Made by a program: the position numbers and the translations under genes. The notes beneath the pieces are model-generated. The model worked only from the letters and a program-made list of their open reading frames with translations. It had not been told where the DNA came from and did no database searches. DNA of 18,386 bases, taken from the NCBI GenBank assembly GCA_051382335.1, contig JBBCAX010000417.1:1-18386 (forward strand). Direction: 5' to 3'. Source of the DNA: Deltaproteobacteria bacterium TL4 (lineage in GTDB: Bacteria > SAR324 > NAC60-12). Below, in pieces: positions 352-18,386 of this stretch (the first letter of the stretch is position 1; every line of letters begins with the position of its first letter).

Positions 352-360
352 CACTTCCTC

Positions 361-401
361 AAAAAAGAAATATTGACACCGTTCATCGTATTGGATACCT
401 T
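361..401 (+). promoter_or_regulatory. putative sigma70-type promoter for fliM
   Basis: TTGACA (373-378), 17-nt spacer, TACCTT (396-401), preceded by an A-rich tract (361-372). It lies about 100 nt upstream of fliM. Confidence 0.4.
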
Positions 402-504
402 GATGAACTCTGATAGGATGAAAATGTTGTGTTTCAAAAATGTTCCCCATTTAGCGGCGGAACATCATTGAGATAACCGTGGATAAAGTACATAAGGAGT
501 TCTC

Positions 505-1530: not shown

Positions 1531-1546
1531 GAAAAGAATCTCGCCT

Positions 1547-1843
1547 TCAGTTCCTTGCGCTCTCACCCGCACGATCCACACGTTCCTTGAGATCCTTACC
1601 CGTTCTGAAAACGGGTAATTTTTTCGGAGGTACTTTAACTTTTGCCCCTGTTTTAGGGTTTCGTCCGGTATAACCTTCATACTCTTTCAACACAAAAGAC
1701 CCAAACCCTCGGATTTCCACACGGTCCCCTGTATTTAAAGCGGTTTTAATACTATCAAAAAAAATGCGAACTACTTTATCCGCGACTCTAACATTACAAT
1801 TACTCTGTGTTGCCAATTTTTCAATAAGTTGTGATTTATTCAT
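1547..1843 (-). CDS. ihfB: integration host factor beta subunit (HU/IHF family)
   Basis: MNKSQLI..., GDRVEIRGFGSF, GRNPKTG, and P.FRTGKDLKERVD are IHF-beta-type motifs. Confidence 0.85.
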   Translation of the reverse strand: MNKSQLIEKLATQSNCNVRVADKVVRIFFDSIKTALNTGDRVEIRGFGSFVLKEYEGYTGRNPKTGAKVKVPPKKLPVFRTGKDLKERVDRAGESARN

Positions 1844-2203
1844 ATTTGCTTTTATGTTTTCAAAGTTTCATTGTTTATGCGTTCACCAATCAATAACAAG
1901 TCCTTGCCAAGAAATAAGTGTAAAATCAACCCCATTTTTAAACAATTTTCATTTTTATTCCGCGATGAGTTCTTCAATTCAGCAATAAGCGGCTAATGCT
2001 TAGCTCTCTGAGCATAGAAAAAGTATTGATAAAATTCAAGTGTTGATCGTTTTTTTTTTTACTATCCTTTATTTTAGCGGTTATAAACGTCACAAGATGT
2101 TAAAAAGCCTTGTGTTCCACAAACGATTTAGTTATTTCTTACCGGGGTGCCCTAAGTTGGATGTATTATTAAGAAGTGAAAAGTGGAGAGATAGAGACAA
2201 ATC

Positions 2204-3088
2204 ATGCGAATATTGATTTCAGACGATAATCAAGATGTTTTGAACACGCTTCGTGTGTTTCTTGAGGATCAAAAGCATATCGTTGTTGAAGCACATGACG
2301 GAGAAGAAGCCTTACATGTGTTTCAAAATTCATCCATAGATGCGGTTTTCAGCGCATTGACCATGCCCAAAATGGGTGGGATGGAATTATTAAAGGAGCT
2401 CAAGCATCTCAATGCACAGCTCCCGTTTGTCATCATATCGCGTCATGGCGATCCTGATAACATCTTAGCGTCCTTAAATTTAGGAGCCTGTGACTTTCTT
2501 ACCAAGCCCTTGGAAAAATCGGATTTGCTAAGAAGCATCAATAAAATTAAGAGTCTCAGGGAAGACTCCCAGTTCAGTATGTACTGTTTGGAGAATTCGG
2601 TTTCTGAGTCTCGTTCCCTGGAAATAGGAAATGATTTTGAATACATTAACCGTATTGTTAATTTTATCACACGAAACTTAACTTCCTATAAAATTCTTGA
2701 AGAAGAAGATCTGTTTACGATGACGATTATTCTTGGGGAAGCTCTGGAAAATTCCATTTTTCACGGAAATCTTGAGATTTCCTCAGAATTGAAAAAGGAA
2801 AAATTTGAAAGATTTCGTCAAGAGGGCGAACGCCGCAGAGAAATAGAACCTTATAAAAGTCGCCGAGTGTATATTTACTACGAAATGACGAGAAATTCCG
2901 TTAAATATATCATTCGGGATGAGGGGCAGGGATTTGACCACAATATGATTCCGGATCCTAAAGATCCTGAAAATCTTTTCAAAGTCAGTGGACGAGGCAT
3001 TTTATTAATCATGAACTTTATGGATGAAGTTTTTTGGAATGAACGTGGAAATGAAATCACTATGGTACGTTATAAGAAGCGAAGTTAA
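2204..3088 (+). CDS. receiver domain (phospho-Asp replaced by Ala) fused to an RsbW/SpoIIAB-like HATPase_c (anti-sigma factor Ser/Thr kinase-like) domain
   Basis: N-terminal ILISDD...DG.EAL...AVFSALTMP.MGG...DFLTKP. C-terminal EALENSIFHGN (N box), IRDEGQGFD (G1), SGRGILLI..FMDEV.WNERGNEITM. Confidence 0.85.
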   Translation: MRILISDDNQDVLNTLRVFLEDQKHIVVEAHDGEEALHVFQNSSIDAVFSALTMPKMGGMELLKELKHLNAQLPFVIISRHGDPDNILASLNLGACDFLTKPLEKSDLLRSINKIKSLREDSQFSMYCLENSVSESRSLEIGNDFEYINRIVNFITRNLTSYKILEEEDLFTMTIILGEALENSIFHGNLEISSELKKEKFERFRQEGERRREIEPYKSRRVYIYYEMTRNSVKYIIRDEGQGFDHNMIPDPKDPENLFKVSGRGILLIMNFMDEVFWNERGNEITMVRYKKRS

Positions 3089-3824
3089 TTTATCGTTACT
3101 CGTCAGCATGTTCTCTTTGTTGGTTTTTCAAGGGTGTGCGGAGACGGACGCCGAGATCAGAACACCGGCAAAAGAGCTTTATCAAAAAGCTTTTATTGCC
3201 TATGAGGAGGATTTACTCCAGGAATCGGAAGATAAATTCAAGAAACTCACAGAAGAACACCCAGGTACCCGTTTAGCGACCTTGGCTTACTTAAAAATGG
3301 GAGACATCAATTACCAAAGAGCAAAATGGGAAGATGCGGAGACCAATTATCGCCTGTTTTTAACCATCAACCCGAATAGTCATTTGACGCCGTATGTGCT
3401 CAATCGCTTGATTGCCCTGAACTATAAGCGGAATGTGACAGGTCTTTTTTTCAAAGAACGGAGCTTTGATCGGGATATGGACCCGAATAATAAAATCATA
3501 GAGGAATATCAGCGATTCTATCTGATGTATTCTCAGAATGCTTATATTGAGGAGGTTCGTGAGTATTTGCTCAAGGCGAGATCAGACTTGGCGGAGCATG
3601 AGTATTTAGTAGGAAATTTCTATCTCAAACAGAGAGCCTACGACTCCGCAATTCACCGGTATCTTTATTTGCTGAGGCAATACCCGGAGTATCCCAAACG
3701 TTTGGAAGTTGGTAAAAGTTTAATTGAGGCGTATTACAGTAACCAACAATCCCACTTAGCTAAAGAAATGGAAAAAGTGTTAGAGTTCCAAGAAGTATTA
3801 GGGAAAATAAACGAAAAAGGTTGA
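3051..3824 (+). CDS. bamD: outer membrane protein assembly factor BamD-like TPR lipoprotein
   Basis: Lipobox VFQG-C, TPR repeats, the BamD-like motifs DRD and LAEHEYLVGNFY...AY.SAI.RY..LL.QYP. The start is uncertain (3024, 3039 or 3051); 3051 gives a normal-length signal peptide. Confidence 0.8.
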   Translation: MKSLWYVIRSEVNLSLLVSMFSLLVFQGCAETDAEIRTPAKELYQKAFIAYEEDLLQESEDKFKKLTEEHPGTRLATLAYLKMGDINYQRAKWEDAETNYRLFLTINPNSHLTPYVLNRLIALNYKRNVTGLFFKERSFDRDMDPNNKIIEEYQRFYLMYSQNAYIEEVREYLLKARSDLAEHEYLVGNFYLKQRAYDSAIHRYLYLLRQYPEYPKRLEVGKSLIEAYYSNQQSHLAKEMEKVLEFQEVLGKINEKG

Positions 3825-3828
3825 GACC

Positions 3829-5049
3829 ATGCGGAGCTTTTTTCTGATAATACTGCTCCTGACCCTTCTACAAATTATTAGTGGGTGCAGTGCACTGGAA
3901 CGTTTGAATAAGAAAATGCCCCCTGAAGCGGAAGTCCCGAAAGTGGTGAGTGAGCAGGATCAACAAAAAATGTTGACACAGCTCCAGGCCGAACAGATAA
4001 AGCTTCGGGAACAGGTTCAGACTTTAGATCAGCAGATCAGTACGCTGAAAAAGACACAAGAGGAACAGCTTCAGCAATTAAATACCATGCAGGCGCAATG
4101 GGAAACCAACTTTATGCTCTTTGAAGAGTCGGTGTCTGAATCCTTGGAGAAAACAGAACGACAACTCCAGCAGCAAAAGGTGCAATCCCTCGTGCCTACC
4201 CCCGTTACGACGCAAACGCAAACAGCTCAGCCTTCCAAAACGCAAGCGCCTCCCCCAAAAGTGCAACCCCGATTGCTTCAGGCAGAACAAAAACCTTTAA
4301 TAGAAACCTATTCTTTATTCCCTCCAGCGCCAATACAAGGGGAAGACGCTAAAAAAACAACGGTGCCCGTACCACTCCCCCCAGTTCCAACACAAGGGGA
4401 AGACGCTAAAAAAATAACGGTGCCCGTACCACCTCCACCAAGAATTCAATCGTTAACGCCCAAAACCCTAATCCCCGCTCCCGCCCTTTTACCGTTACCC
4501 CCTCCTGATGAAGACGAGGTGGTGAATGAGCAAAAACCATCAGCTCCAGCGGAAACGCCGCAACCCGGACCTGCCCAAGACCCCCCAGGCAATGTTGCCG
4601 CAGTTCCTTTTCAGGACGCGGATCTGGAGGAACCACAAGCACCGTTAACGCTTAAAATGCATCCAGGTGTGAAGCGGTTGTATAATCAGGGGATGTCGGC
4701 ATTGATTGAGAAGCGGTACGAAAGCGCAATTCAGCTGTTCAATAATTTTACAGAACAATTTCCAGATGATTTTGACAGTGATAACGCAACCTATTGGATT
4801 GGTCATTCTTATTTTAAATTAAAGCGACTTTTGGAAGCTGAAAACGCCTTTAGAAAGATCCTGAGGCTTTACGAACATCGTTCCACGTCTCAGGGATATA
4901 AAACACCTGAGGCCATTTATATGTTAGGTAAAATTGCGGCTCAGCAACAAGAATTTGAGAAAGCACGGTATTATTTTCAAGAGGTAAACAAGCGCTTTCC
5001 TGATTCTTCATCAGCGGAAAGTGCAAAAAAAGAATTACAAAAACAATAA
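3829..5049 (+). CDS. CpoB/YbgF-like (Tol-Pal-associated) TPR protein with lipoprotein signal and long Pro-rich linker
   Basis: Lipobox ISG-C, Gln-rich coiled coil, Pro-rich linker, and C-terminal TPRs LYNQG...F..F..QFP....DNATYWIG..YF...KTPEAIYMLG...V.KRFPDSSSA..A. Confidence 0.7.
   Translation: MRSFFLIILLLTLLQIISGCSALERLNKKMPPEAEVPKVVSEQDQQKMLTQLQAEQIKLREQVQTLDQQISTLKKTQEEQLQQLNTMQAQWETNFMLFEESVSESLEKTERQLQQQKVQSLVPTPVTTQTQTAQPSKTQAPPPKVQPRLLQAEQKPLIETYSLFPPAPIQGEDAKKTTVPVPLPPVPTQGEDAKKITVPVPPPPRIQSLTPKTLIPAPALLPLPPPDEDEVVNEQKPSAPAETPQPGPAQDPPGNVAAVPFQDADLEEPQAPLTLKMHPGVKRLYNQGMSALIEKRYESAIQLFNNFTEQFPDDFDSDNATYWIGHSYFKLKRLLEAENAFRKILRLYEHRSTSQGYKTPEAIYMLGKIAAQQQEFEKARYYFQEVNKRFPDSSSAESAKKELQKQ
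4330..4443 (+). repeat. 57-bp in-frame tandem duplication (2 x 19 aa)
   Basis: CCAA(T/C)ACAAGGGGAAGACGCTAAAAAAA(C/T)AACGGTGCCCGTACCAC at 4330 and 4387, encoding P(I/T)QGEDAKK(T/I)TVPVP. Confidence 0.95.
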
Positions 5050-5060
5050 AAGATATTATT

Positions 5061-5597
5061 ATGGTTACCAATACTAATGTTAAATACAGTGTCCGGTTAT
5101 TGAGCGAAGCTGACGTGAATCAACCTTGGTTCCTCGAATCAACCCTTGAGTACAAGCTCAAGATTGCACTTTTGCAAAACAGGATGGGGGAGCATTATCC
5201 AAAGATGACAGAGATGATTGTCCGTTTGTTGAATCATCAAGGAGCAGAAAGGCAAATCCGGAGACTTCGCCCCAAAAATGAGGCCGTTTTAGCCTATTTG
5301 GTAAAGGTTGGAGTTAACAACAAGGTTTTTCATTATTTATTGATTATTGGGGGAGAAGTCTCAACAAAAACGAAAAGCATGGGCTACACACAAAATACGG
5401 ATAGTTACGCTTATCATAATTGCTATTGTGTTATTGGCGCAAAAGAGTTACTTCAAGACTCAAAATTTGGAACACCTAAAAGCACACGAGAGGTTCAAGG
5501 GCAAGTTTTTCATGAGTATGAAGTCAAAGAAAGGGCAACTTGTGAACTGATCATGAATTTGTTAAAAAAGATTTGTACTCAGGAAAAAGTTCTTTAA
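5061..5597 (+). CDS. hypothetical cytoplasmic protein
   Basis: 178-aa ORF tightly packed between the CpoB-like gene (11-nt gap) and cheY (39-nt gap). No recognised motif. Confidence 0.7.
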   Translation: MVTNTNVKYSVRLLSEADVNQPWFLESTLEYKLKIALLQNRMGEHYPKMTEMIVRLLNHQGAERQIRRLRPKNEAVLAYLVKVGVNNKVFHYLLIIGGEVSTKTKSMGYTQNTDSYAYHNCYCVIGAKELLQDSKFGTPKSTREVQGQVFHEYEVKERATCELIMNLLKKICTQEKVL

Positions 5598-5636
5598 CCC
5601 CCTATTTTTCTATAACTTTATTTCATTAGAGGCGTT

Positions 5637-6026
5637 GTGTCGAGCAAGGACATTAACATTTTAGTTGTCGATGATATTGAAAACATGCGTAAACTCATTG
5701 CGAGCATGCTCTTTAAGTTGAAGTATTCGCAGATTACCATGGCGATTGACGGACGGGATGCGTGGAATAAATTACAAAATGGCCAGTTCGATCTGGTTGT
5801 TGCGGATTGGAATATGCCTCAAATGAGTGGCCTGGATTTATTAAAGGCGATTCGGGGTCATGCCAGTTTTGCGGATCTCCCTGTGCTCATGATTACGGCA
5901 GAGGCTGTCAAGGAAAATATCGTTGCAGCGGCAAAACACGGGGTCAATGGCTACATTGTCAAACCCTTTAGTCCCGCGACCCTGGAGCAAAAAATTTCAG
6001 ATATTTTAGCTAAAGCAGGCAAGTAA
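5637..6026 (+). CDS. cheY: chemotaxis response regulator CheY
   Basis: Single receiver domain closely resembling E. coli CheY: ILVVDD..MR, DWNMP.MSGLDLL, PVLMITAEA.KENI, GYIVKPF...TLEQKI. GTG start with AGAGG RBS. Confidence 0.9.
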   Translation: MSSKDINILVVDDIENMRKLIASMLFKLKYSQITMAIDGRDAWNKLQNGQFDLVVADWNMPQMSGLDLLKAIRGHASFADLPVLMITAEAVKENIVAAAKHGVNGYIVKPFSPATLEQKISDILAKAGK

Positions 6027-6039
6027 GCAAAGGCCCCCT

Positions 6040-6414
6040 ATGCTGGAATTTGTTAAAACAGAACAAAGAAACCAAAGTCAAGAACAGTTCAAACACCAAA
6101 AGCGTAAGTTTTTATGTAAAATTTGCCAAACCGTCATCAGTGAAGAAAAGTACCTACTGGTCACTCATGGAGAGACGCCTTATCATACTTTTAGAAATCC
6201 CCTGGGACTTGTTTTTAATATTGTCACCTTATCTTATTGTGAAGCCCTGTGTCCAGTTTCCACCCCCACCTCTGAAGAAACCTGGTTCTCAGGCTTCACC
6301 TGGACCATCGAATGCTGCGTCGTCTGCCGAGAGCACTTGGGATGGTGTTTTGAAGGGACGTCAGAACCCTACCGCTTCTATGGATTGGTTTACAACCGAC
6401 TTGAATCAAAATAG
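6040..6414 (+). CDS. cereblon-like CULT (thalidomide-binding, Yippee/Mis18 fold) single-domain zinc protein
   Basis: CKIC...FRNPLG..F...TWFSGFTW...CVVC.EHLGWCF...FYGL, matching cereblon CxxC...NPHG...SWFPGYAW...CxxC..HIGWKF...FWGL. Confidence 0.9.
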   Translation: MLEFVKTEQRNQSQEQFKHQKRKFLCKICQTVISEEKYLLVTHGETPYHTFRNPLGLVFNIVTLSYCEALCPVSTPTSEETWFSGFTWTIECCVVCREHLGWCFEGTSEPYRFYGLVYNRLESK

Positions 6415-6463
6415 TGTCCAGGCGGCTGTCCCAGAATAGGTTGAGAGGAGCGATTAGCGAAGC

Positions 6464-6498
6464 GGCACCCATCAAAATGCACGTCTCTGAGGGGTGCC
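6464..6498. terminator. hairpin between convergent genes (possible bidirectional terminator or degraded REP)
   Basis: GGCACCCATCA (6464-6474) pairs with TGAGGGGTGCC (6488-6498), 10/11 bp. No clear U-tract. Confidence 0.3.
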
Positions 6499-6526
6499 AG
6501 TGAAGTGAGGGGTCTTGGACAAGGAC

Positions 6527-8608
6527 CTAAGATCGTTTCACTTTAAAAAAGGAAACAAGCTTTTTAAGTGCTTCTGCCATTTTCGAAAGTTCCCCGGCAC
6601 TTTCGGTAGTGTGTGCCACAATATACTTCATGGATTTAACGGTTTCTTCAATCACCGTAATATTTTGATGAACCCCCTGAACACTCATTGAAACGTGAGC
6701 ACTGGAACGAGCTGCTTCTTTGACGCCTACTGAAATTTCGGTCAGGTTCCGGGTTGCTTCTTTTGCGGCATAAGAAGCCTCTGAGGTTGAAGAGGTTATT
6801 TCCTGGAGTCCTTCGGTGGCCTCCTTGACGTTGAGTGCCGAGGTTTGGCTGGCTTTGGCGATTTTTTCAATCGAAAGATTCACATTCGAAAAAGCCTTGC
6901 TTTCTGTCTCAACCGTTTGATCAATCGTGGTATTGATACTTGCGATCTCCGTATTGATTTCATTCACATGGGTCATGTGCACCAGACTCGTTTTCATATA
7001 GGTTTGAATCTGTTCTATATGCTGTCCGATACTGCTGTTCGCGTCTGTGGTTTGATGAGCCAGTTCTTTTACTTCCGCGGCAACGACGGCAAACCCTTTT
7101 CCGGCTTCTCCCGCACGAGCAGCCTCAATGGTCGCGTTGAGAGCCAGCATATTGGTTTGTCCGGCAATTTCGTCAATCAGCTCCACAACTTGTCCGATTT
7201 CTGTCGCCGCTTTTCCGAGTTGATTCATGGTATTTAAGGTTTCTTGAGCACGTTCGCTGGCATTTTGCGAAATAGTCATCGCTTTTTGAGTACTTTGAGA
7301 AATCTGCCCCATGGAAACAGACATCTTCTCGATCGTCAGGGCAACCTTTTGAATATCCTCGGAAATCAAGTTAACATTTTGACTTGTACTGGACATTTTA
7401 CTGGACGCCTGATTTGCCGCCGAAGCGATGGCATTGATATTGGTACTCAACTGTTCCACTGCGGAAGTTACCGCAAGGATATTACTTGAAGACTGTTCTG
7501 TCGCGGCCGCAACCGTGTTGACATTGTGGCTCATATCCTGGGAGGCTTTCGAAATGGCATTGGTTTGCTCGTGAATTTCTGTCGAACTGGCGGCCATATG
7601 ATTAGCGACGTCAGTCAACTCGGTCGCCGCAATATAAAGTTGATCCGTATGGGTCGCAATCTCACTGACTGTATCATGAATCTTAAGCGTAAACTGGTTA
7701 AACCCCCGGCTTAACGCGCCAATCTCATCTTGTTTCCGTATTTCAAGACGGACGGTTAAATCGCCTTCACCTTGAGTTAAATCCTCAAAAGTTCTAATAA
7801 AATGATGCAGAGGGACATAGAGCGTGTAGCGGAAAATAAGGAACATCAGCAATGTCACAGGAATGATAATGGCAATAATAATCACTCCCATACTTACCAA
7901 GCTTTCGTCCCTTTGCTGATTGAAGAGATCCTTGTTCATCTTGAGGCTCAAGTAACCCGCGATATTATTTTCTTTCCAATGGGTATGGCACTGTATGCAG
8001 TTTTTGGTAACAGGAATACTATAATAAAACAGGAATCCGACTTCGGTAATCTTATGCGCCATCCGTTTTTCATCAAATTGTAATTTTTCTTCTTTAATAT
8101 CAAAGTGACAGGTTCCACATCTTTCATGTCCTTCTTCTTTTCTATGTTCCATCGCTGTTTCTGTATCTAAACGGTCTATAATATTCCAATCTTCTCGTTT
8201 ATATTGCCCTTTCGTCTCTTTATAAAGTTCAATATTAGGGTTATCAAATTCACCTGTATCAGGATCTTTCGTAAAGGGGATACCCACCGTGACTTCCCCT
8301 GATTTATAGGTCATCAATCCAAACGATGAATAAAGTGCGGTTTCTTCAATTTCATTTAGATTGGCAATATTATTGACAACATTTTGAAATGGTTTTCGTT
8401 GTCCTTTTTCAAGAGATTCCTTGGATTGTCGAACAAAACTACTGAGCAAACTATACCCCGAGTTAATCATTCGCTCCTCATGCATGCGGTTTTGAACGAT
8501 GTAGACAACGATTGCGATAACAATGGCAATGGCAACCGTCGCGCTACTTACAAAAAAGATGGAACGATTAATCAATGATTGTTGAACTTGAACGCTGGAA
8601 TTACTCAT
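6527..8608 (-). CDS. methyl-accepting chemotaxis protein with a periplasmic di-haem-c (2 x CxxCH) sensor domain
   Basis: TM1 (IFFV...VVYIV), periplasmic CGTCH (8105-8119) and CIQCH (7985-7999), TM2, HAMP (GDLT.RL....DEIG.L...FN.F), and the signalling tip [37 protein letters not shown]. Confidence 0.95.
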
Positions 8609-8654
8609 GAATGGATCCTGATTGCTGTCTTTTTAAGTTCCTGTTGACTCACCT

Positions 8655-9578
8655 TTATGTTGGCTCGCACACTCTGGTATCTTTATATTGGTGAAACATA
8701 ATTTTTCTTGGAAATTGATAACTGGCACATCCCACACAGGGGTGTCCTGCCCGGATACAGGTATTGGTATTGTCATTATGCCCCAGAGTAGAACAATCAT
8801 TATAGGTCACGGGGCCCTGACACCCCAGATGAAGCAAACAACCATCTTCGCCGATGACTGCAGCAAAATGGTTTTCCTGAAAATCCGCATAATAGAGACA
8901 CCGCTCATGGATGGTATGCTTGAATAAGTGTAAGGGGCGCAAGTGCTGATCCAGCTCAGGGAGTTTATTTAATTGCAGAAAGTGCAGCAGGGTGTAGGCC
9001 AAATGTTCAGGTTTCATAGGACAGTTGGGTAGATTCACCAAGGGATTAGTTATTTTTTCCTTTTGCAGAAATTCCTGAAGAGAAAGACTTCCGGTAACCA
9101 TACCTTCCATCTTGGTAACACCGCCAAAAACAGCACAAGTTCCAGCGCCAACATTGGCAATCGAATGAGAAGCCAGAAGTTCAACCCAATAAGCAATCGG
9201 TTTGCCTGCCATCATGCAGGCATGAGGCATTTGACCAGGAATAGCGCCTTCAAACACAAAGAGATATCCCCGCTTTGATTCGATCAGCGATTCGATCAGA
9301 AGCGGAACTTGATGCCCCGTGGCCAAGGACAAATCCGGATGAAAGACCAAATCAATAAAGCGTGTGATTAAATCGACGATGGAGATGGTTTCCAAATCCA
9401 GCAAAGACCCGGAACATCCGGAACAAGAAGTTCCATGAAGCCAAATCACTGCCGGTCTTTCTGACTTGTTCTGAGGTGCCGCCAACAGGTCCTCAAAGGA
9501 AAGAAAGGAGCTTGCGCCAATTCCCACCACCACTTCAAACATGCGTAATAGTACTTCTCTACGAGTGAGTTTCTCCAT
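8655..9578 (-). CDS. [NiFe]-hydrogenase small subunit with twin-arginine signal
   Basis: Start reassigned to ATG 9578 because of the AAAGGAG RBS. LTRREVLL Tat-like motif; proximal CSGC/GTC/NCP, distal HERC...GCL..LGCQGP, medial DC...TCIRAGHPCVGC. No C-terminal TM helix. Confidence 0.93.
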   Translation of the reverse strand: MEKLTRREVLLRMFEVVVGIGASSFLSFEDLLAAPQNKSERPAVIWLHGTSCSGCSGSLLDLETISIVDLITRFIDLVFHPDLSLATGHQVPLLIESLIESKRGYLFVFEGAIPGQMPHACMMAGKPIAYWVELLASHSIANVGAGTCAVFGGVTKMEGMVTGSLSLQEFLQKEKITNPLVNLPNCPMKPEHLAYTLLHFLQLNKLPELDQHLRPLHLFKHTIHERCLYYADFQENHFAAVIGEDGCLLHLGCQGPVTYNDCSTLGHNDNTNTCIRAGHPCVGCASYQFPRKIMFHQYKDTRVCEPT

Positions 9579-9598
9579 GAGGTCTCCTTTGGATAGTT

Positions 9599-11152
9599 TT
9601 AATGAACCGAGCAGGCCATACAAGGATCAACTGACCGGATAATTCTTAAAAGCTCAAGGGGATGTTGGGAGTTCGCCACTTTGGTTCCAATCAACATTTG
9701 TTCGACAAAGCCACGTTTTCCCTGGGAATCTTTAGGGGACAGATTCCATGTGGTCGGTACAATTAAATCATAGTTCCGAATGTAGCCCTTTTCATCAGTT
9801 TCAAGCCAGTGTCCCAACGCCCCACGGGAAGCTTCTGTCAGGCCAACGCCTCTACGGGACTTAGGAACATCCATTTCGACAAAGGCTTTTTGATCAGGGC
9901 GGACGGCGGCAAGATCTTCCTTCAGTTTTTCAATCATTAACAGCGACGTCAGCATTCTGGATAAATGTCGGCCCATCACAGAGTCATAATCGTCAAGGCT
10001 AATCCCCAATTGACGATTCGTCTGATCCAGCAGTTGAGTCAAACGTGGATTTTTTCCACTGCGATAGGTGTTTATCAATCTTGCGGCAGGGCCGACCTGC
10101 ATCACATGACCGTTGTATCTTGGCGCTTTGGTCCAACTGTATTTTCCCCCCTCCCGTTGCTGCTCCTTTTCAAAGGCAGCTTCATCTAAAGGCGTTAATT
10201 TATTTTGTGCTAACGGGCGAACGTCAGAGGAGGGCTTGTCATTGTAGTAGGAATAGGTGTGGTCTTCCGAAATTTTATCAGGATCCAAGGGTTCATACAC
10301 CCCCTGAATGGAAACGCCCCCTTGAATCATAGGTGTCTCCCCGTTGGCATCAGGCATAAAAGGATAGGACAATAAGTTCCCGTTGCCCCGACCTATTTGA
10401 AAATACCTTCGAAATTGAGAAGCAACCGCTACAACATCATTGTAATACGCTTGAGTAATAAAAGCTTCCGCCTGTTCAAGGAAACTTTGAAACCGAGCAA
10501 GCTTAAGGGGCGTTGGTATTGTCGTAACACCACCGGCTTCCATCGTAACGGGATGAGGGGCTTTCCCACCAAAAAGAGCCACCATTTTATGAATGTCCGC
10601 CATCACCGGAAGGGCCTCCGCATAGTGTTTGATGGCACTGAAATTGGAAGCGCTGTCTTTATTATAATCACCTTCATAGCGTGGAAGAAAGGGACTTGCG
10701 GGAAAAACGCTGTTGCTTTCAAGTTCAGCTTTGACCCAGTTTCTCAAGTAAACCAGCGTTGCGTCCTTCCCCTGATATTGAAGTACGGCGGCAATATCGA
10801 TGAAATCCAAAGCGCATAAATAGTAAAAATGAAGCAAATTATCAGACAGTTGATAGGCGCCGACAATCAGATTTCGCAGTAACTGTCCATTCGAATTAGG
10901 CTTAATCCCCATTGCGTTTTCCAACGCCAAAGACGCGGCCTCCGCATGAGCATAGGGGCAAATACCACAAACACGCTGCGTGACTTGCTGTGCCACTCGA
11001 GCGTCATATCCTATCAATGCCTTTTCAATACCTCGAAACATTTCTGAGCTTGCCTTAACACCCACCACGACATTGTCCTGGATCTCAGCTTCAATCTTCA
11101 AATGTCCCTCAATCCGGGTGACCGGATCAATGATTATCTTGTTGTATCCCAT
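9599..11152 (-). CDS. [NiFe]-hydrogenase large subunit (group 1-like), lacking the C-terminal extension
   Basis: IDPVTRIEGHL, MFRGIE, L1 QRVCGICPYAH, HFY.L.ALD, YSWTKAPRY, EASRGALGHW, VPTTWN, L2 DPCMACSVH followed immediately by TAA. AGGAG RBS. Confidence 0.96.
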   Translation of the reverse strand: MGYNKIIIDPVTRIEGHLKIEAEIQDNVVVGVKASSEMFRGIEKALIGYDARVAQQVTQRVCGICPYAHAEAASLALENAMGIKPNSNGQLLRNLIVGAYQLSDNLLHFYYLCALDFIDIAAVLQYQGKDATLVYLRNWVKAELESNSVFPASPFLPRYEGDYNKDSASNFSAIKHYAEALPVMADIHKMVALFGGKAPHPVTMEAGGVTTIPTPLKLARFQSFLEQAEAFITQAYYNDVVAVASQFRRYFQIGRGNGNLLSYPFMPDANGETPMIQGGVSIQGVYEPLDPDKISEDHTYSYYNDKPSSDVRPLAQNKLTPLDEAAFEKEQQREGGKYSWTKAPRYNGHVMQVGPAARLINTYRSGKNPRLTQLLDQTNRQLGISLDDYDSVMGRHLSRMLTSLLMIEKLKEDLAAVRPDQKAFVEMDVPKSRRGVGLTEASRGALGHWLETDEKGYIRNYDLIVPTTWNLSPKDSQGKRGFVEQMLIGTKVANSQHPLELLRIIRSVDPCMACSVH

Positions 11153-11320
11153 GCTCTCCTGCTCCTATAAGTTATGTGTCCTCCCTCTTCGCTGTATGCC
11201 AAATTAATCCAACACAGTCTAGTTAAAAATACAATTATTCGCTTCAAGCTATAGAGGTTCATTTAAATAAATTCAGAAAACTCATCCTGTTGCGAGATCC
11301 GTTGAAACAACGCTGTTTCA

Positions 11321-11396
11321 GGAGTACCAAAGCTTGCTTTGGCCAGAAAGTCGAAAATCTTTCTTTGCCTTTGGCCAAAGCAAGCTTTGGCACTCC
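11321..11396. repeat. REP-like inverted doublet (GGAG-type)
   Basis: GGAGTACCAAAGCTTGCTTTGGCCA (11321-11345) and its inverse (11372-11396) match 24/25. Each arm contains the hairpin CCAAAGC-NN-GCTTTGG. Confidence 0.85.
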
Positions 11397-11412
11397 ACAG
11401 TCGGGGGTAGAC

Positions 11413-12732
11413 TCAAATGAATTTATTAATTTCTTCCATACGCTCCACCTCGCTTTTTAAAAAGTGGAAGCATGTTTGAGAGGCGCCTTTTTGGGATTCA
11501 ACAAAATGTTGCACTTGTTGCCCTAATTGAAGACATCGCTCTCGATTGCCCAGGTGTGTCCATAAAACTTGATGAAACTCGTTGGGCGTACTTACGGTTG
11601 AGGCCAATTGATGCGCTACCATGTGCTTGGCTTCAGGTGAATTATGGAAGCGTGGTCCAAAAATTACAGGAACCCCCATGGCACAGGGTTCCAGGGTGTT
11701 ATGGACCCCTGTCGTGAACGCGCCTCCGATGTAAGCCAAATGTCCAGCCTCATAAAGGGAGGAGAGGATACCGACGGTATCCATGAGAATGATCCGAACT
11801 TCCGCTGTTTTTTCGTTGAGCTGTGACCAGCGGACCAAAGGAAATTCATGGAAAAACGTTTCACTCGGCTTTAGATGCGATTCCATGGGCTCATGCGGAA
11901 CAATCAGCAGCAACAAGTCGGGAAATTGTGTCAGCGCGGCTTTAAGTGCGGGGAAAATACAGTCTTCGTCCGGAGGCCAGGTACTCCCCGCAATGAAGAC
12001 AAAACGTTGCGCGACGTAATCGGGTAACTTTAGCGAAGGGAGTTGAGCTCTGCGCTGAAGCACACTATCAACCCGTGTGTCTCCGGTCACTTCGATTTTA
12101 GGATGCTCAGGATTGGTCAACAGCAAGCGCTGCTTGTCTTCAAGGGTAACGGTAAAGATTGCGTTCAGGCAAGGGTAGAGTGTCCGAAAAAGGGAGCGCC
12201 CCCAGGGTGTTTTGATTTTTGCGGATTGGGGTGACAGGGAACAGGAAATCAAGAGTTGAGGAAGGCGTTGGGCATAAGCTTCCCAAACCAGGTTTGGCCA
12301 AAGGTCAAATTTAACATAAACAATGGCGGAAGGATGTAAAATTGCCAAACATTGCCGCACATTATAAAGAGAATCAAAAGGCAGATAATCCGCTAGCAGC
12401 GGAGGATTGTTTTCAGGAAATTTTGTTTTTTGAATCCATTTGTAGCCGTTGACCGAGGTGAAGGTTAACGCATATTCCCATCCATATTGGTAACATTCAT
12501 TCAGCAGAGGTTGTGCCTGTAAAAATTCACCGGCACTCGCGACATGGAACCAAACCAGGGGTTTATGTAAATCTCTCCGATTGCCTTGTTTTTCCAAGCG
12601 GTCCCCAAATCCCTTGCGTCCTTTTAAAGCCGCCCGAAGATTGGCGTTACGGAAACTGACGAGTTTCGCAAGGAGCCAGAGGCAGGGCAAGAAAAACCAG
12701 TTATAAAGTAAAGCCCATGTTTGTTGTTTCAT
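11413..12732 (-). CDS. waaA: 3-deoxy-D-manno-octulosonic acid (Kdo) transferase
   Basis: VWFHVASAGEF, YLPFD, LWPN, VTGDT..D, IAGST, IVPH, DTVGIL..LY, HNTLEP...GVPVIFGP are GT30/KdtA motifs. Confidence 0.9.
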   Translation of the reverse strand: MKQQTWALLYNWFFLPCLWLLAKLVSFRNANLRAALKGRKGFGDRLEKQGNRRDLHKPLVWFHVASAGEFLQAQPLLNECYQYGWEYALTFTSVNGYKWIQKTKFPENNPPLLADYLPFDSLYNVRQCLAILHPSAIVYVKFDLWPNLVWEAYAQRLPQLLISCSLSPQSAKIKTPWGRSLFRTLYPCLNAIFTVTLEDKQRLLLTNPEHPKIEVTGDTRVDSVLQRRAQLPSLKLPDYVAQRFVFIAGSTWPPDEDCIFPALKAALTQFPDLLLLIVPHEPMESHLKPSETFFHEFPLVRWSQLNEKTAEVRIILMDTVGILSSLYEAGHLAYIGGAFTTGVHNTLEPCAMGVPVIFGPRFHNSPEAKHMVAHQLASTVSTPNEFHQVLWTHLGNRERCLQLGQQVQHFVESQKGASQTCFHFLKSEVERMEEINKFI

Positions 12733-12752
12733 TGTTTCATCCGGAGAAGGGT

Positions 12753-14195
12753 TCAGTTGGGTTCATCTTGGAAAGAGCTAGGTAAAATATTAAACGGGAG
12801 AACCTTGATTAAAATGGCCAAAACAATGATTCCCGCAGGCAGGCAAAAGATCGCAAGCGCGGGAATAGTTTTGAGGATGTCCATTAACTGTTCCCTGACT
12901 TTGGCTTTTTCTTCAGAGGTAAGAGACTCCGTCGTGGATTTGACCAACAACATGTAGAGTTCCTTGGTTTCCTGAATTTCTGTAACAATTCGATCCATGT
13001 TTAACTTAAGCTGCTCTTTGACACGGTTCCGAAAATGCTGTTCCATTTTGGTGACCGCGGGATTGTCTTTGAGAAAATTAAAACGCGACCCCTCTTTGGC
13101 AAAAAAGGCGCCAACGGAACAATATAAAAGATCAACGTTTTCCTCACTCAATTTTAAGGTTTGGGCGACTTTGATAATGGTTTCCAACTCTTGCGGCACT
13201 TGTTGATTATCAATCAGCGAGAGCAAGATCAAGCGTTCCAGCAGATATTTTTTCAATAGAAGGTGTGGGATTTTCAAGGGGATTTCTTCAAGCCGCATGT
13301 ATTGACTCATCCGCTCTTCCAGGAGCATTTGTAATTCAAGAGGAAAATTCCCCTGAGTGATGTATTGTTTCAGCATCTGAATTTCAACATCAGCCAAGTG
13401 TCCATCAGACCAGATCAACACGCCAAAAACCAAAATAAGTTGCAACCTAAGATTGAATTCTTGCTCCAGAGCATCAGAGAGTTTTATAGGAGAGGTCGCG
13501 GTCTTTCTTAAATTTTCAGAATGCCACCTGAAAAAATAATAAAGTTTAGGAAACACAAAACTGTTTTGTAAACTGCTGATATGGGAATGTTGTAGATTTT
13601 TTATATTAACTTTTTCGGTGATTTGTTCTTCAACGCGGTTGACAGCTTTTAAAAAATCCCCGTTATTTTTTAACAAAAAAGATAAGGGAACATTAGACGG
13701 AAAGTTAAAAGGAGTTTGAGGCAAATAGAAAGCGATGATTTTTCTCATGACATAGGTCATCCGCAATTCATACGACCGCTGAAAAGGCACGAGGAGTTGA
13801 TGTTCTTCAATGGCGACAGAAAACAACATTTCTACATAAGCCAGCAAGGCTTCTCCATTCGATTTGGGAAAGTTCAAATAGCTCACATTGTCTTTTTGCG
13901 AGTCACTCAGGATGGGGCAGCCAAAAAACAAACCATTCTGCTGAGCGACGCCGTAAAGTCGTTCATCCAGGGTTTCCCGATCATAAGCGGGTAACGGAGG
14001 ATAATGGTAGGCCTCGATTTTTTCAAAAGGGATTCGAAGGCGGTACTCAAGGTAGCGTTGAAGCCACCCTTGGAACCGTCTCATTTTCAAACGATTATTC
14101 CATTTTTTTATGGAGGCGAAGAGGGAATACAAGGAGATCAATCGCCACTTAATAAAGGTATTCACCTTTCTCCTCATCATGATTATCTTGTTCAT
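12753..14195 (-). CDS. LETM1-related protein with TerB-like central domain
   Basis: IWSDGHLADVE and LIDNQQVPQE...I..VA..L.L are TerB-like. The C-terminal EL..LL.KS....LT.EEK.KVREQL.DI.KTIPALAIF.LP.G...L..L.K......LPSSF is typical of bacterial LETM1-like proteins. The start is uncertain. Confidence 0.65.
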   Translation of the reverse strand: MNKIIMMRRKVNTFIKWRLISLYSLFASIKKWNNRLKMRRFQGWLQRYLEYRLRIPFEKIEAYHYPPLPAYDRETLDERLYGVAQQNGLFFGCPILSDSQKDNVSYLNFPKSNGEALLAYVEMLFSVAIEEHQLLVPFQRSYELRMTYVMRKIIAFYLPQTPFNFPSNVPLSFLLKNNGDFLKAVNRVEEQITEKVNIKNLQHSHISSLQNSFVFPKLYYFFRWHSENLRKTATSPIKLSDALEQEFNLRLQLILVFGVLIWSDGHLADVEIQMLKQYITQGNFPLELQMLLEERMSQYMRLEEIPLKIPHLLLKKYLLERLILLSLIDNQQVPQELETIIKVAQTLKLSEENVDLLYCSVGAFFAKEGSRFNFLKDNPAVTKMEQHFRNRVKEQLKLNMDRIVTEIQETKELYMLLVKSTTESLTSEEKAKVREQLMDILKTIPALAIFCLPAGIIVLAILIKVLPFNILPSSFQDEPN

Positions 14196-14357
14196 TTGAT
14201 GGTACGCTTTGTGAAGGTTTCTATTGCTTTCACTTCCTTTATATCATTCTTCATGGAGTCTGTGGAGAGAAAATTGACAAAGATTTATTAATCTCTTAGG
14301 ATTTGTCTTAACATGCAATACATACTCAGGTTTTCTAAAAACAGTTTAGAAGACGCT

Positions 14358-14462
14358 TATAGTGCTCAAGATAAGTTTTGTCCTGGGAGCGCGGGCGTCC
14401 CGCCCGCTTTTGCGGGCAAGATGCCCGCGCTCCCAGGGAAAAAACTTTCCTGGACAGCTATA
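14358..14462. mobile_element. putative TA-flanked MITE-like element enclosing a GC-rich REP doublet
   Basis: Imperfect terminal inverted repeats TATAG-TGCTCAAGATAAGTTT / AAACTTTCCTGGACAG-CTATA enclose CCTGGGAGCGCGGGCGTCCCGCCCGC (14382-14407) and its inverse (14412-14437; 23/26). Confidence 0.55.
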
Positions 14463-14479
14463 CACAGGTAGTTTGAATT

Positions 14480-14603
14480 GGCTACTCACTTAAAGCGAGA
14501 CTTTGGTAGGCGGGGATTACATGCCCCGCTTTTCTGAGCGTTGAGGTTGCCGGACACGTAGTTCCGGCCTACCATCGAGGTGTCCCGGGTTAAGTGAGTA
14601 GCC
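14480..14603. mobile_element. 124-bp MITE (IS1595-like ends) with 8-bp target duplication and internal GTAG-type REP doublet
   Basis: Perfect 14-bp TIR GGCTACTCACTTAA (14480-14493) / TTAAGTGAGTAGCC (14590-14603), flanked by TTTGAATT at 14472-14479 and 14604-14611. Internal GGTAGGCGGG...CCCGC / GCCGGA...TCCGGCCTACC. Confidence 0.85.
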
Positions 14604-14708
14604 TTTGAATTTTATGTTAGGGACCGCCCGTTCCCAAAGGCCTCAAGATAAGTTTGGTTCAAGGACAGGCTTATTGTTAATAGCAAAAAACACACAAAAA
14701 ACACTAAA

Positions 14709-16094
14709 ATGAAAAAAAGAATTTTACTCTCAGGCTTGGGCTTAGGGTGCAGTCTGACCTTGCTTTGGGCCGCAAGCTTGGTGACGCAGGAACTATTCAC
14801 CCGGTATTCCCGGGAAGTGGTTAGCCACTTTGTTCAATTGACCTTTCAGGGAGAACGTTATCCGCTGATGCATGCTATTTCGGATTTACGTTTTAAAGTA
14901 TTTTCACACGAATTGAAGATTCAAAACCGTATGGAGACCCAGGCTTGTTCCGAACGGCGTAATTACGGTCGTGAAGTTCCGGAGGCGCAACATACTTTTT
15001 GCGCAAAATACGATGAACTGATTGACTTGGCTAAAAACGCGGTCGCCAACGCGGATACTTTTGAGAGGATGTACGTACTTATGGAACCATGGCTGTTGCA
15101 AGAGATTGAAAGACTACGGGCACGGAAATCCATTAAACTGTGGGTGACACGTAAATTAAATTGTTTGGATAACCAAACGTCGTGTGGCCGGGATGAGCGT
15201 CAAATGTTCCAGCGGGTTACCGGATGGAATGCTGAGATCATCCAGGTGTACCGTAAAAATATGGTGAACCTTGTCAAAAAACTTTTTCCAGAAGAGCAAA
15301 AATCACTTTTAGTGGGGACGACCCTCATGGACTCCCCCTGTAATGCCACAGAAAACATCCGGGAAATTACCATCAAAAAAGGCATGGTCCGTATTCCGGG
15401 AGGCTTGTTTGAAATGGGTAGCGACCAAGGACGTCCGGATGAGAAACCTGTGCATGAGGTTCAGCTTGATACTTTTTGGATCGACCGGTGTGAAGTTACC
15501 AATTTGCAATTTCTGCAATTTGTGGCGGACAATCCCTCCCTGAGAAAAAGCACCTTCCCTCGTCAATTTCACGATGGTAATTACTTGAATTTATGGTTGG
15601 ATGATTTGCAACCTCCTGCCGGTAAAAATAACCATCCTGTGACTTATGTTTCCTGGTTTGCTGCCCGTTACTACTGTGATGCCCTGGATAAAAGGTTAGT
15701 CTCTGAAGCTGAATGGGAAAAAGCAGTCCGGGCAAACGCCTCCAGTCTTTATTTTTTTGGTGAGGATCCCAAGCGTTTGGGGGAATTTGCCTGGTATAAC
15801 CAAAATTCTGAAAAACTCTTACATAAAGTGGCTTCCCGAAGTCCGAATCCGTTTGAACTTTATGATATGCTCGGCAACGTTTGGGAGTGGGTTTACGATT
15901 GGTACTCCCCTTACCCTGAGCTTGAAACGCTCAACCCACAAGGTCCCACTGTCGGGAAATATCGAGTTTTGCGAGGGGGAGCCTGGGAAAGTCCAGATCA
16001 CTATTTGAGAGTTTCTGTAAGAGGTGATGAGTCCCCTGTAATCACGAGGCCGGAGGTAGGCTTTCGTTGCGCGTCAGATACCTCACCTGAATAA
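14709..16094 (+). CDS. formylglycine-generating enzyme (SUMF1/FGE-sulfatase) domain protein with N-terminal membrane anchor or signal
   Basis: MVRIPGG.FEMGS...DEKPVHEV.L..FWID..EVTN, HPV..VSW..A..YC....KRL.SEAEWEKA, PNPF.LYDMLGNVWEW..DWY, RV.RGG.W, GFRCA. Confidence 0.9.
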   Translation: MKKRILLSGLGLGCSLTLLWAASLVTQELFTRYSREVVSHFVQLTFQGERYPLMHAISDLRFKVFSHELKIQNRMETQACSERRNYGREVPEAQHTFCAKYDELIDLAKNAVANADTFERMYVLMEPWLLQEIERLRARKSIKLWVTRKLNCLDNQTSCGRDERQMFQRVTGWNAEIIQVYRKNMVNLVKKLFPEEQKSLLVGTTLMDSPCNATENIREITIKKGMVRIPGGLFEMGSDQGRPDEKPVHEVQLDTFWIDRCEVTNLQFLQFVADNPSLRKSTFPRQFHDGNYLNLWLDDLQPPAGKNNHPVTYVSWFAARYYCDALDKRLVSEAEWEKAVRANASSLYFFGEDPKRLGEFAWYNQNSEKLLHKVASRSPNPFELYDMLGNVWEWVYDWYSPYPELETLNPQGPTVGKYRVLRGGAWESPDHYLRVSVRGDESPVITRPEVGFRCASDTSPE

Positions 16095-16099
16095 GGAGA

Positions 16100-18079
16100 T
16101 CACTTCGTTTCAGTAAGCAACTCTTTGACCGCTTGAATGAGTTCTCCAAGATAGATGGGTTTCATCAGCAGTTTTCTAATCCCAAATTCTTGAAACAGAT
16201 TGGTGACAATGGTCTGACTGTATCCTGTAATGAGAAGGATCGGCAGATCCCGACGAAGCTTGATCAATTCCTGACTTAACGCCAAACCTCTCATTTTGGG
16301 CATGACTTGATCGGTGATGACCAGATCATATCGTTGCGGGTTCTTTTTAAACCGCTGTAAGGCCGTTTTTCCATCAGAGCAGTAGGTTACCTCATACCCC
16401 TCCCGTTGTAAGGCCAGCAAAAAGTACCTTCCCACTTCACTGTCATCCTCAGCCAGCAGAATACGATAGTGGCTTTTTGATGGGGTGCTTTCCAAAGAAG
16501 ATTCCTGGGAAATTTTCAACATTTCGGTATTGACTACAGGGAAATAGAGGGAAAAGGTAGACCCTTTGCCTAAGTCACTATCAACGGTAATGATGCCTTT
16601 ATGTCGTTCAACAATATTGTAGACGATTGAAAGCCCCAGTCCTATGCCATCCTGAGAAATGCCAACATCCTGCTCTCTGAATTTCTTGGTGGTAAAAAAA
16701 GGTTCAAAAAGCCGTTCTTTGACTTCATAGCTCATGCCTTTTCCAGAATCTTTTAAGGTGATGACCAAAAAACGCGTGTCGGGACTCCCTGGCGACAACA
16801 GTTCTGAAATGTTCGAAAAAGGCGCGTCAGTTATCATGATTTCAAAGACACCCCCCTCGGGCATCGCATCTTTCGCGTTGATTCCAATATTCAATATGGC
16901 TTGATAAATCTGTGACTCTTCGGCCAGGATCAAGGGACAATCAGGGTGTGGCGTTACACGAATTTCAATAGTGTCCGGAAAAATACTCTTTAACTTGGTC
17001 ACGGCCTGCCCTACCGCATTGCAAACAGTCATAGGCGCCAGCTCTTTACCATGAAGCGCGGCAAAGTCACGTAATTGAGTCACCACGTTTTTGGCACGCG
17101 CACCACTTTGGACAATATTTTCAATGTAGCGTCTTTCATCCGTTTTTTCCGGCAGAAACTCACGCAATAACTGGGCATATCCAAGGATGATGGAAAGGAT
17201 GTTATTGATATCATGGGCCACCCCCTCGGCAAAGGTACGCATAATTTTCATTTTATGAGCGTACTGCATTTGTTTTTCCAGATACGACTGCTTCTGTTCA
17301 GCGACTTTCATCTCTGTAATGTCCCGGTTAACACTAACAAAGCCCACAGGCGTGCCGTTGTCCTCTCTGATCACGTTGATGGAGATCATCATCACCAGCG
17401 TGTTGCCCTTTCTGTGTTGATGCTTCATTTCGCCTGTCCATTGTCCCACACTCAGCACATGGTCAAAAATCGATTCACGAAACCGGGTTTGGTCTTCGAG
17501 TAACAGAAAGGCTCCTAAGGGCTTTGAAAGAACTTCTTCGGCTTCCCACCCATAGACTTTTTCCGCCGCTTTATTCCAAGAGCTGATATTGAAACGCAGA
17601 TCTACAGAAATAATCGCATCCGACACGGATTGTAACAGCACCGACTGATGCTCAATGTGTTTTACCGCGTATTGTTGGAGTTCTATTTCTGTTTTCAGTT
17701 GAAGTTCCCTCTCACGAGCCGCCAAGGCCGCGTGAATTTTGGCTTTGAGGAGGTTTGCGTTACAACCGGTGCTGATAAAATCAACAAAGTCTAACGTCAT
17801 ACTCCATTCTAATAATTGAAAATCCTCTTCAAAGTTCAGTAATAGCGTAGGAATAGGTTGGTGTTTTGAGCGTTGCTGGAGTTGTATCAACAGACTGGTG
17901 ATCTCTAAATCGGGCGTTTTGAGATCCAGCAGCAGGAGTTCCACAGAGAATTCTTCTAATAGCTGAAATAAGTGCTGAACCTCAGAGAGGGTCTCGGCAT
18001 TATGTCCTAAAGACTCAATTGAAGGCAGGATTTGAGCTAACAAGACAGAATCGTCACTGACAATCAGAATCATCGACAT
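16100..18079 (-). CDS. hybrid sensor histidine kinase (degenerate REC-PAS-HisKA-HATPase-REC)
   Basis: PAS (DAIISVD...SWNKAAE.VYGW...RDITE), H-box GVAHDINNIL, NAKDAM, DSGKGM, FEPFFTTK, GIGLGL, and C-terminal receiver LLAEDD...DLVITDQVMP...ITG...MKP. No TM helices. Confidence 0.92.
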   Translation of the reverse strand: MSMILIVSDDSVLLAQILPSIESLGHNAETLSEVQHLFQLLEEFSVELLLLDLKTPDLEITSLLIQLQQRSKHQPIPTLLLNFEEDFQLLEWSMTLDFVDFISTGCNANLLKAKIHAALAARERELQLKTEIELQQYAVKHIEHQSVLLQSVSDAIISVDLRFNISSWNKAAEKVYGWEAEEVLSKPLGAFLLLEDQTRFRESIFDHVLSVGQWTGEMKHQHRKGNTLVMMISINVIREDNGTPVGFVSVNRDITEMKVAEQKQSYLEKQMQYAHKMKIMRTFAEGVAHDINNILSIILGYAQLLREFLPEKTDERRYIENIVQSGARAKNVVTQLRDFAALHGKELAPMTVCNAVGQAVTKLKSIFPDTIEIRVTPHPDCPLILAEESQIYQAILNIGINAKDAMPEGGVFEIMITDAPFSNISELLSPGSPDTRFLVITLKDSGKGMSYEVKERLFEPFFTTKKFREQDVGISQDGIGLGLSIVYNIVERHKGIITVDSDLGKGSTFSLYFPVVNTEMLKISQESSLESTPSKSHYRILLAEDDSEVGRYFLLALQREGYEVTYCSDGKTALQRFKKNPQRYDLVITDQVMPKMRGLALSQELIKLRRDLPILLITGYSQTIVTNLFQEFGIRKLLMKPIYLGELIQAVKELLTETK

Positions 18080-18111
18080 AGCAAGACAACTTTCATAACC
18101 AAGAGAAATCA

Positions 18112-18251: not shown

Positions 18252-18386
18252 CGAAATCACATCATAAAAAAGAGGAGGCCTCTACCTCCACGGCTTTCTC
18301 ATAAAAAACCAACTTGACAAAGTATATTCATAAAAAAGGGTTCGGAGTCCCTGCAATTATCAAGATTCTCTTTCATATTTTTCCCA

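Follow-up and report, generated by a model that had tools for sequence, protein, structure and literature searches.

A [NiFe] hydrogenase encoded beside a di-haem chemoreceptor: most likely an undescribed way of sensing H2 outside the cytoplasm

Introduction

Among [NiFe] hydrogenases, a sensory role is assigned to groups 2b and 2c in Table 1 of HydDB, where chemotaxis appears solely under the putative [FeFe] group C2 (PMC5037454). Taxis towards H2 has been shown in a methanogen, for which the accessible part of the report names no receptor (PMC3817446), and an 87-gene cluster of methyl-accepting chemotaxis proteins (MCPs) near [NiFe] hydrogenases has been tabled, without discussion in the available text, in a neighbourhood study (PMC12727194). 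Here, we consider three genes in an 18,386-nucleotide (nt) stretch of DNA from Deltaproteobacteria bacterium TL4, a member of SAR324 (contig JBBCAX010000417.1, positions 1 to 18,386; 'the window' means this whole stretch). They encode the large and small subunits of a [NiFe] hydrogenase and an MCP whose periplasmic domain carries two haem-binding CxxCH motifs. Because the unit recurs in several phyla with swapped outputs, it is most likely an undescribed way to sense H2 outside the cytoplasm.

The unit is real, conserved and apparently undescribed. A literature search, beyond whose reach most subscription papers lay, returned no description of it, and it is not described in the accessible portions of PMC2825233, PMC6702916 and PMC4704652. 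The sequence motifs of its hydrogenase clade match no entry in the 2016 sequence table of HydDB, in which the three Sedimenticola entries are other enzymes.

The hydrogenase

The features are given below by position in the window.

9599..11152, minus strand: [NiFe]-hydrogenase large subunit (517 aa; Pfam PF00374, E 6e-133)
8655..9578, minus strand: small subunit (307 aa, ATG at 9578; PF01058 and PF14720)
9477..9578, minus strand: twin-arginine translocation (Tat) signal peptide of the small subunit, predicted from sequence (about residues 1-34, RR at 6-7)
6527..8608, minus strand: MCP (693 aa; PF00015, E 5e-37, and PF00672)
7901..8491, minus strand: periplasmic di-haem sCache-type sensor domain of the MCP (residues 40-236; AlphaFold2 and structural matches)
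8105..8119, minus strand: first CxxCH of the MCP (residues 164-168), inside an insertion
7985..7999, minus strand: second CxxCH of the MCP (residues 204-208), at the site common to mono-haem sCache_heme sensors

The first-pass annotation of the window had described three co-oriented, tightly spaced genes, and the coordinates agree, with gaps of 20 nt between large and small subunit and 46 nt between small subunit and MCP. It had also given each gene its own ribosome-binding site. This holds for the two hydrogenase genes, which have strong GGAG-type sites, and less well for the MCP, which has a weak AGGA. Gene content and Pfam searches bear out its statement that the unit lacks a cytochrome, a maturation protease and any hyp gene. 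Its two other structural claims likewise stand: the small subunit opens with the twin-arginine sequence MEKLTRREVLL and has no C-terminal hydrophobic helix, and both CxxCH motifs fall within the periplasmic domain of the MCP.

The catalytic residues of the large subunit are all kept, namely the Ni/Fe-binding Cys62, Cys65, Cys511 and Cys514 together with Glu15 and Arg443. The protein stops at its terminal His517 (DPCMACSVH, then the stop codon) without a C-terminal extension, so that no protease would be needed for its maturation; the maturation protease family (PF01750) has no match in the host genome. The same terminal His ends 118 of the 120 closest database homologues (56-66% identity, self excluded), one of the remaining two being partial and the other ending in Gln. 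Naturally tail-less [NiFe] enzymes are listed as groups 2b, 2d, 4c, 4e and 4g in the accessible part of PMC7294309, which also shows that a group 1 enzyme without its tail is able to mature and be delivered to the membrane. The best matches of the large subunit in the PDB are group 1 [NiFe] and [NiFeSe] enzymes, and it scores below the cut-off of all eight NCBIfam models that it matches (403 versus 780 bits for HysA).

The small subunit aligns to PDB small subunits with a proximal cluster site at C51/C54/C147/C185, a distal site at H223/C226/C246/C252 and a medial site at C261/C273/C280/C283. The four Cys of the medial site indicate a [4Fe-4S] type. We compared 64 relatives, a non-redundant set of loci with complete small subunit and sensor from which one frameshifted locus was left out. 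All 12 cluster ligands are invariant in the 64, as is the RR pair, and none has a C-terminal membrane anchor as judged by low C-terminal hydropathy. Two places past the RR pair, 32 of the 64 have F and 29 have A; in the host, V replaces the usual F. The small subunit is thus probably exported by Tat, with a predicted cleavage site.

In a first tree, the module's large subunits formed a single branch (21 of 90 rows, support 100). In a second, they formed a clade of 10 of the 39 rows, with a Shimodaira-Hasegawa-like approximate likelihood ratio (SH-aLRT) support of 100, that excluded HoxC, the sole group 2b row in a set holding no group 2c reference. This clade fell outside the 22 group 1 rows, most of which bear a tail (SH-aLRT 96). 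Its exact position is unsure because the trees were quick and of uneven composition.

The receptor

The MCP is built, by Pfam and hydropathy, of a first transmembrane helix (TM1, about residues 16-37), the di-haem sensor, a second helix (TM2, about 237-261), a HAMP domain and the signalling domain. The AlphaFold2 model of the sensor has a mean predicted local distance difference test score (pLDDT) of 94.5, and its structural matches are sCache domains: WalK at Z 10.7 (root-mean-square deviation 3.3, 129 residues aligned), CitA at Z 9.5 and Tll0287 at Z 7.5. A profile search of 1.84 billion representatives returned 54 full-length members (50%-clusters) down to E 1e-49, every one with two CxxCH motifs. 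Below them came fragments and then mono-haem relatives, which match in two stretches around the first CxxCH. Judged by this reach of the profile search and by the structural matches, the modelled domain has the fold of sCache_heme sensors, a single Cache with a CxxCH ahead of the last strands, and forms a minor di-haem branch of that family (covered in the available text of PMC12889525), with an extra haem site in an insertion.

The first CxxCH is invariant in the 64 di-haem sensors, and the insertion that holds it is absent from the mono-haem relatives; the second is invariant in all 64 and in 90 of 90 mono-haem sequences. PF11845 matched three of the 64, weakly. A Met that is invariant in the mono-haem sequences and that, from its spacing, presumably corresponds to Met60 of GSU0935 is replaced in the di-haem form. 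Candidate replacements at the distal haem sites could be Met99 and His155, conserved in 55 and 41 of the 64, respectively. PDB and Pfam also matched the sensor to MtrC and c7 cytochromes, through the CxxCH motifs, and these matches were rejected as evidence of fold. Atlas matches, at 0.89-0.92, were to haem-sensor families and to MCP-like clusters without names and serve as leads only.

Linkage across genomes

A motif scan of species-representative genomes for the large subunit gave 57 loci, of which 48 hold the full trio, one a large-subunit remnant with the sensor, and six are cut by contig ends. The remaining two have room but no sensor, and their genomes carry a small subunit and sensor on other contigs. 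Metagenome contigs, which partly overlap the genome set, gave the full trio in 35 of 48 loci, the other 13 being cut. The first-pass annotation had stated what would count against its proposal, namely that close homologues mostly lack the MCP or come with cytochrome b; what the two surveys returned in most loci is the trio. Approached from the other side, a sensor motif scan gave 58 loci: one chance match, 42 full trios, eight with small subunit and sensor, one with a large-subunit remnant, three cut and three sensors alone. Hydrogenase genes thus adjoin 51 of the 57 real sensor loci, and the genomes of all three lone sensors also gave a large-subunit match. No di-haem sensor was found in 72 other hydrogenase loci.

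Linkage is also seen in presence and absence. In a set of 41 related genomes, those with the clade's large subunit and those with the sensor are the same three. In the host's phylum, five of 88 genomes have the sensor, four with the hydrogenase and one (G123) as a remnant without it. Carriers include Campylobacterota, Gamma- and Betaproteobacteria, Desulfobacterota and SAR324. In a few loci the gene order differs, with the sensor first, divergent or convergent, and in Thiospirillum jenense all three genes are intact on three contigs (L127, L190, L263). In one Campylobacterales genome, enzyme and sensor are both truncated. Of 49 carriers, 38 also encode a canonical group 1 large subunit of full length, separate from that of the module, and 11 do not. 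Small-subunit identity tracks that of the sensor (rho 0.73) more closely than that of the cytoplasmic part (0.43) in 41 MCP rows, a comparison among non-independent kin that we do not use as proof.

Some loci merit mention in their own right. Maturation genes (hypA/D/F) lie close to the module in only six of the 57 large-subunit loci; at L261:2880-11849 (G009), hypD, hypA and hypF follow it on the same strand. In Thiorhodococcus (L222:7347-7733), a large-subunit start is fused in frame to a small-subunit end, with an intact di-haem MCP downstream. Broken copies occur at L104, L113, L183 and L231: a large subunit interrupted by one stop codon, a sensor kinase split over two frames, and genes that are truncated or frameshifted, whether by decay or by assembly error.

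Swapped outputs and mono-haem sister loci

The cytoplasmic part of the sensor protein is not constant. The 48 full loci comprise 32 MCPs, 12 membrane kinases with HATPase (one with Hpt), one receiver-like output and three that are cut. The receiver-like case (L087:7430-9640) joins its di-haem sensor to a weakly matched receiver-like domain and a C-terminal domain of no assigned family, and is divergent from the hydrogenase genes. Similarly, 51 of the 54 sensor cluster representatives, scanned as proteins alone without gene context, gave 36 MCPs, two HATPase-only proteins, three hybrid kinases, three GGDEF proteins and seven with no output domain called. Since the output is not always an MCP, what is conserved is the hydrogenase-haem input module, and the retention of the haem domain while the cytoplasmic part is swapped is the strongest sign that hydrogenase and haem domain form a sensory input. 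Judged from these sequences, the pair appears to behave as a portable one. The comparison across genomes thus lends good support to the first-pass reading of a hydrogenase-MCP system for H2 chemotaxis, which is refined in its output, a function that CheA-like kinases, hybrid kinases and GGDEF proteins take over elsewhere.

A related tier of loci has one haem motif. Two outgroup loci (33% and 40% identity) encode a tail-less large subunit, a Tat-type small subunit and an MCP with a single CxxCH, and close matches to this sister pair occur in two of 301 and nine of 21 genomes of their respective classes. Ten further sister loci comprise nine with a tail-less large subunit, small subunit and mono-haem MCP, and one that is cut; one sister locus is directly followed by cheA. 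In one planctomycete locus, no receptor accompanies the tail-less pair. The approximately unbiased test neither favoured nor rejected a grouping of the di-haem and sister tiers as one clade (p-AU 0.39). Other tail-less large subunits lie in outgroup loci L021, L058 and L010, where neither a di-haem sensor nor an MCP was matched.

Proposed mechanism and alternatives

We hold that the module very probably has a sensory role. It is also likely, judging from its genes and their conservation, that it would act as a periplasmic H2 sensor, handing electrons on to the haems of the receptor and, in this host, driving chemotaxis. The host genome (100% complete by markers, 445 contigs) encodes the functions called upon: TatC, cytochrome c maturation genes, HypA, HypD and HypF, together with 12 CheA-type and 11 flagellin-family matches. 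Flagellin co-occurrence is itself uninformative, being found in 49 of 50 carriers but also in 37 of 41 relatives of the host.

In the proposed sequence of events, the Hyp machinery would load the tail-less large subunit, and the dimer with the small subunit would be exported by Tat. H2 would be oxidized in the periplasm and electrons would travel through three [4Fe-4S] clusters and on to the receptor's c-type haems, with the haem in the family-specific insertion probably the first acceptor and the core sCache haem the next. By analogy with GSU0582 and GSU0935, the haem redox state would alter ligation or conformation and, through TM2 and HAMP, act on the signalling domain and CheA/CheY. In the host the output would be chemotaxis, and in other hosts the same input would drive kinases or diguanylate cyclases. 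As no electron sink is encoded, the haems would, given a reversible enzyme, track the H2/H+ couple much as a hydrogen electrode does, with a logarithmic response; with an oxidant such as O2, they would report the balance of H2 versus oxidant. Mono-haem relatives of the GSU0582/GSU0935 type change their Met ligation with redox state, the potentials being -156 and -251 mV (in the accessible text of PMC8396549), while by arithmetic the H2/H+ couple at pH 7 stands at about -240 mV at 1 nM and about -330 mV at 1 micromolar dissolved H2. Haems of this kind could, by analogy, titrate over environmental H2 levels.

A wider proposal, on which our judgement is evenly divided, is that these loci represent a separate class of H2 sensing, in which an exported [NiFe] detector transfers electrons directly to haem c and acts as a hydrogen electrode on a molecular scale. 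Such a class would have arisen from a mono-haem sCache_heme MCP like those of the sister tier, to which a relay haem was added, and would then have moved from phylum to phylum as an input that can be plugged into chemotaxis, kinases or cyclic di-GMP signalling. On this proposal, no receptor for H2 taxis would have been identified before it.

Several observations weigh against H2 sensing through the receptor haems. Domains of the sCache_heme family fused to signalling modules have been characterized as NO sensors in the available part of PMC12889525. All 90 mono-haem sensors have a Met that none of the 64 di-haem sensors keeps, 59 of the latter having Arg in its place, and so the known redox ligation switch is not simply conserved. 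In Thiorhodococcus, an in-frame deletion runs through both subunits and leaves the di-haem MCP intact, and sensors have also outlived an intact hydrogenase in G123 (a remnant) and L231. Operon linkage alone does not prove contact, the kin compared are not independent, and motif scans recover only sequences resembling their source set. Furthermore, no other [NiFe] or [FeFe] hydrogenase (including PF02906) was found in the host genome, so that taxis towards a respirable fuel is not evident there, and 22 host reading frames with at least three CxxCH motifs are possible electron sinks. The host may use H2 as a cue, or the module's enzyme may also feed some of these multihaem proteins.

The precedent of NO binding suggests an alternative in which the receptor would respond to NO, CO, O2 or ambient redox, and the hydrogenase would serve as a reductase dedicated to poising the haems, with H2 as the baseline and not the signal. 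GSU0582 and GSU0935 bind both NO and CO (PMC8396549, accessible text), the loss of the distal Met could open a site on the core haem, and the carriers include redox-gradient organisms. However, a hydrogenase is not part of how most mono-haem members work, whereas the di-haem form hardly occurs away from hydrogenase loci, and Met99 and His155 could fill both distal sites; we consider this explanation unlikely. The multihaem frames raise a different possibility, namely that the enzyme is an ordinary periplasmic group 1a-like uptake hydrogenase feeding soluble cytochromes encoded elsewhere, and that the receptor is co-regulated with it and senses redox indirectly. It is the sole hydrogenase found in the host, HydDB files the similar-looking large subunits of Deferrisoma camini and Desulfurivibrio alkaliphilus as group 1a anaerobic uptake enzymes, and the 11 carriers without a second canonical group 1 large subunit would fit. 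An ordinary uptake role of this kind is nonetheless distinctly unlikely given a unit without cytochrome or protease, a sensor retained through output swaps, changes of gene order and operon break-up, a canonical uptake enzyme already present in the 38 other carriers, and a clade placed by the second tree outside the tail-bearing group 1 enzymes.

Very unlikely, in our assessment, is sensing of H2 by contact, in which the reduced enzyme would alter its binding to the receptor and the haems would be structural or modulatory. It has a precedent in the proposal made for HoxBC-HoxJ (PMC6978683, in the part available), and there are invariant non-ligand residues that could form such a surface, namely Q233 and F288-P289-R290 of the small subunit and G69, Q70, F74, R138 and W211 of the sensor. 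Two invariant haem motifs, one of them newly acquired, and a three-cluster wire are, however, what an electron relay needs. Electron transfer from a periplasmic hydrogenase to the receptor haems thus stays our preferred reading. If true, it would add to the [NiFe] hydrogenases a new subgroup, perhaps counted in present surveys among the respiratory uptake enzymes, and would exemplify a new principle in which an enzyme acts as the periplasmic detector of a receptor. Cultured, non-pathogenic carriers include Sedimenticola selenatireducens, Thiocystis violacea and Desulfurivibrio dismutans, and a concrete three-gene candidate in cultured strains makes the question of the H2-taxis receptor testable.

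Flanking sequence and other host genes

The remaining feature of the unit is its upstream region, to which a function is given by position alone.

11153..11320, minus strand: intergenic region, presumed promoter of the three genes

No sigma-70 consensus site was found in this region. Upstream of 55 relatives, sigma-28 motifs (7, against a shuffle mean of 3.7 and maximum of 7) and sigma-54 motifs (3, against a shuffle mean of 1.9) were not enriched. The flanking genes, a Kdo transferase-like gene upstream and convergent genes downstream, are by Pfam unrelated to hydrogen metabolism. Between the Kdo transferase-like gene and the promoter region lies an inverted repeat with 25-nt arms (11321-11396), a genome-wide element resembling repetitive extragenic palindromes, with 268 blastn matches in the genome. 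At the other end, a hairpin with 11-nt arms (6464-6498), possibly a terminator, separates the MCP stop from a convergent Yippee/Mis18-like gene. The latter (6040-6414) encodes a small Cys-rich protein with a weak Yippee-Mis18 match and directly follows a CheY-like receiver gene (5637-6026). A fliM gene (505-1530) lies on the same contig, about 5 kb from the MCP and away from other flagellar genes.

Elsewhere, a group-4-like gene (C420, L249) was rejected as a hydrogenase because its large subunit lacks the Ni-binding Cys pairs; by resemblance, the complex is probably of the Ehr type.

Comparison with known systems

The regulatory hydrogenase HoxBC-HoxJ (group 2b) resembles the module in having an H2-activating dimer without a C-terminal extension, HoxC ending at its His, in genes that directly precede a signal transducer, and in the absence of a membrane electron acceptor. 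The two are nevertheless distant, at 29% and 27% identity and on separate tree branches. HoxBC-HoxJ is cytoplasmic and HoxB has no twin-arginine signal, whereas all 64 of the module's small subunits have the RR pair. It controls transcription, has no haem-c partner and is encoded in the order small-large, whereas the module has the order large-small. HoxJ is a kinase in the control of hydrogenase genes; here a haem-bearing MCP in the membrane takes the partner's place, and where other loci have a kinase instead, it too is a membrane protein and carries this haem domain. At the positions aligned to I62 and F110 of HoxC, which we take to be the Ile and Phe of its narrow gas channel, the host has I64 and L112, and the clade mostly Val and an invariant Leu.

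The [FeFe] group C2 enzymes, entered as 'chemotactic (putative)' in Table 1 of HydDB (PMC5037454), share the predicted link between hydrogenase and MCP. They are of another enzyme class, their role is listed there as undetermined, and neither a periplasmic haem-c sensor nor Tat export is described in that source. Within group 1a, HysAB gives the best sequence matches and shares the Tat signal, the missing anchor and the four-Cys medial cluster. The module differs in having no tail or protease, in its large-before-small order and in a receptor as third gene, and its clade did not group with the Hys-type rows in the second tree. Group 1a of HydDB is broad and includes similar-looking relatives of the module's large subunit.

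On the receptor side, GSU0582, GSU0935 and DcrA are alike in what the available sources describe: an sCache fold, a c-type haem between two transmembrane helices, and MCP or kinase outputs. The module's sensor departs from sCache_heme (DUF3365/Tll0287) in an additional CxxCH carried by the insertion, in the change of the family Met to Arg and in standing almost always beside a hydrogenase. The terms 'hydrogenase', 'di-heme' and 'diheme' do not occur in the accessible text of PMC12889525. Hydrogenase-based sensing of H2 is already known, and it is the clade, the compartment, the partner and the output that all differ here.

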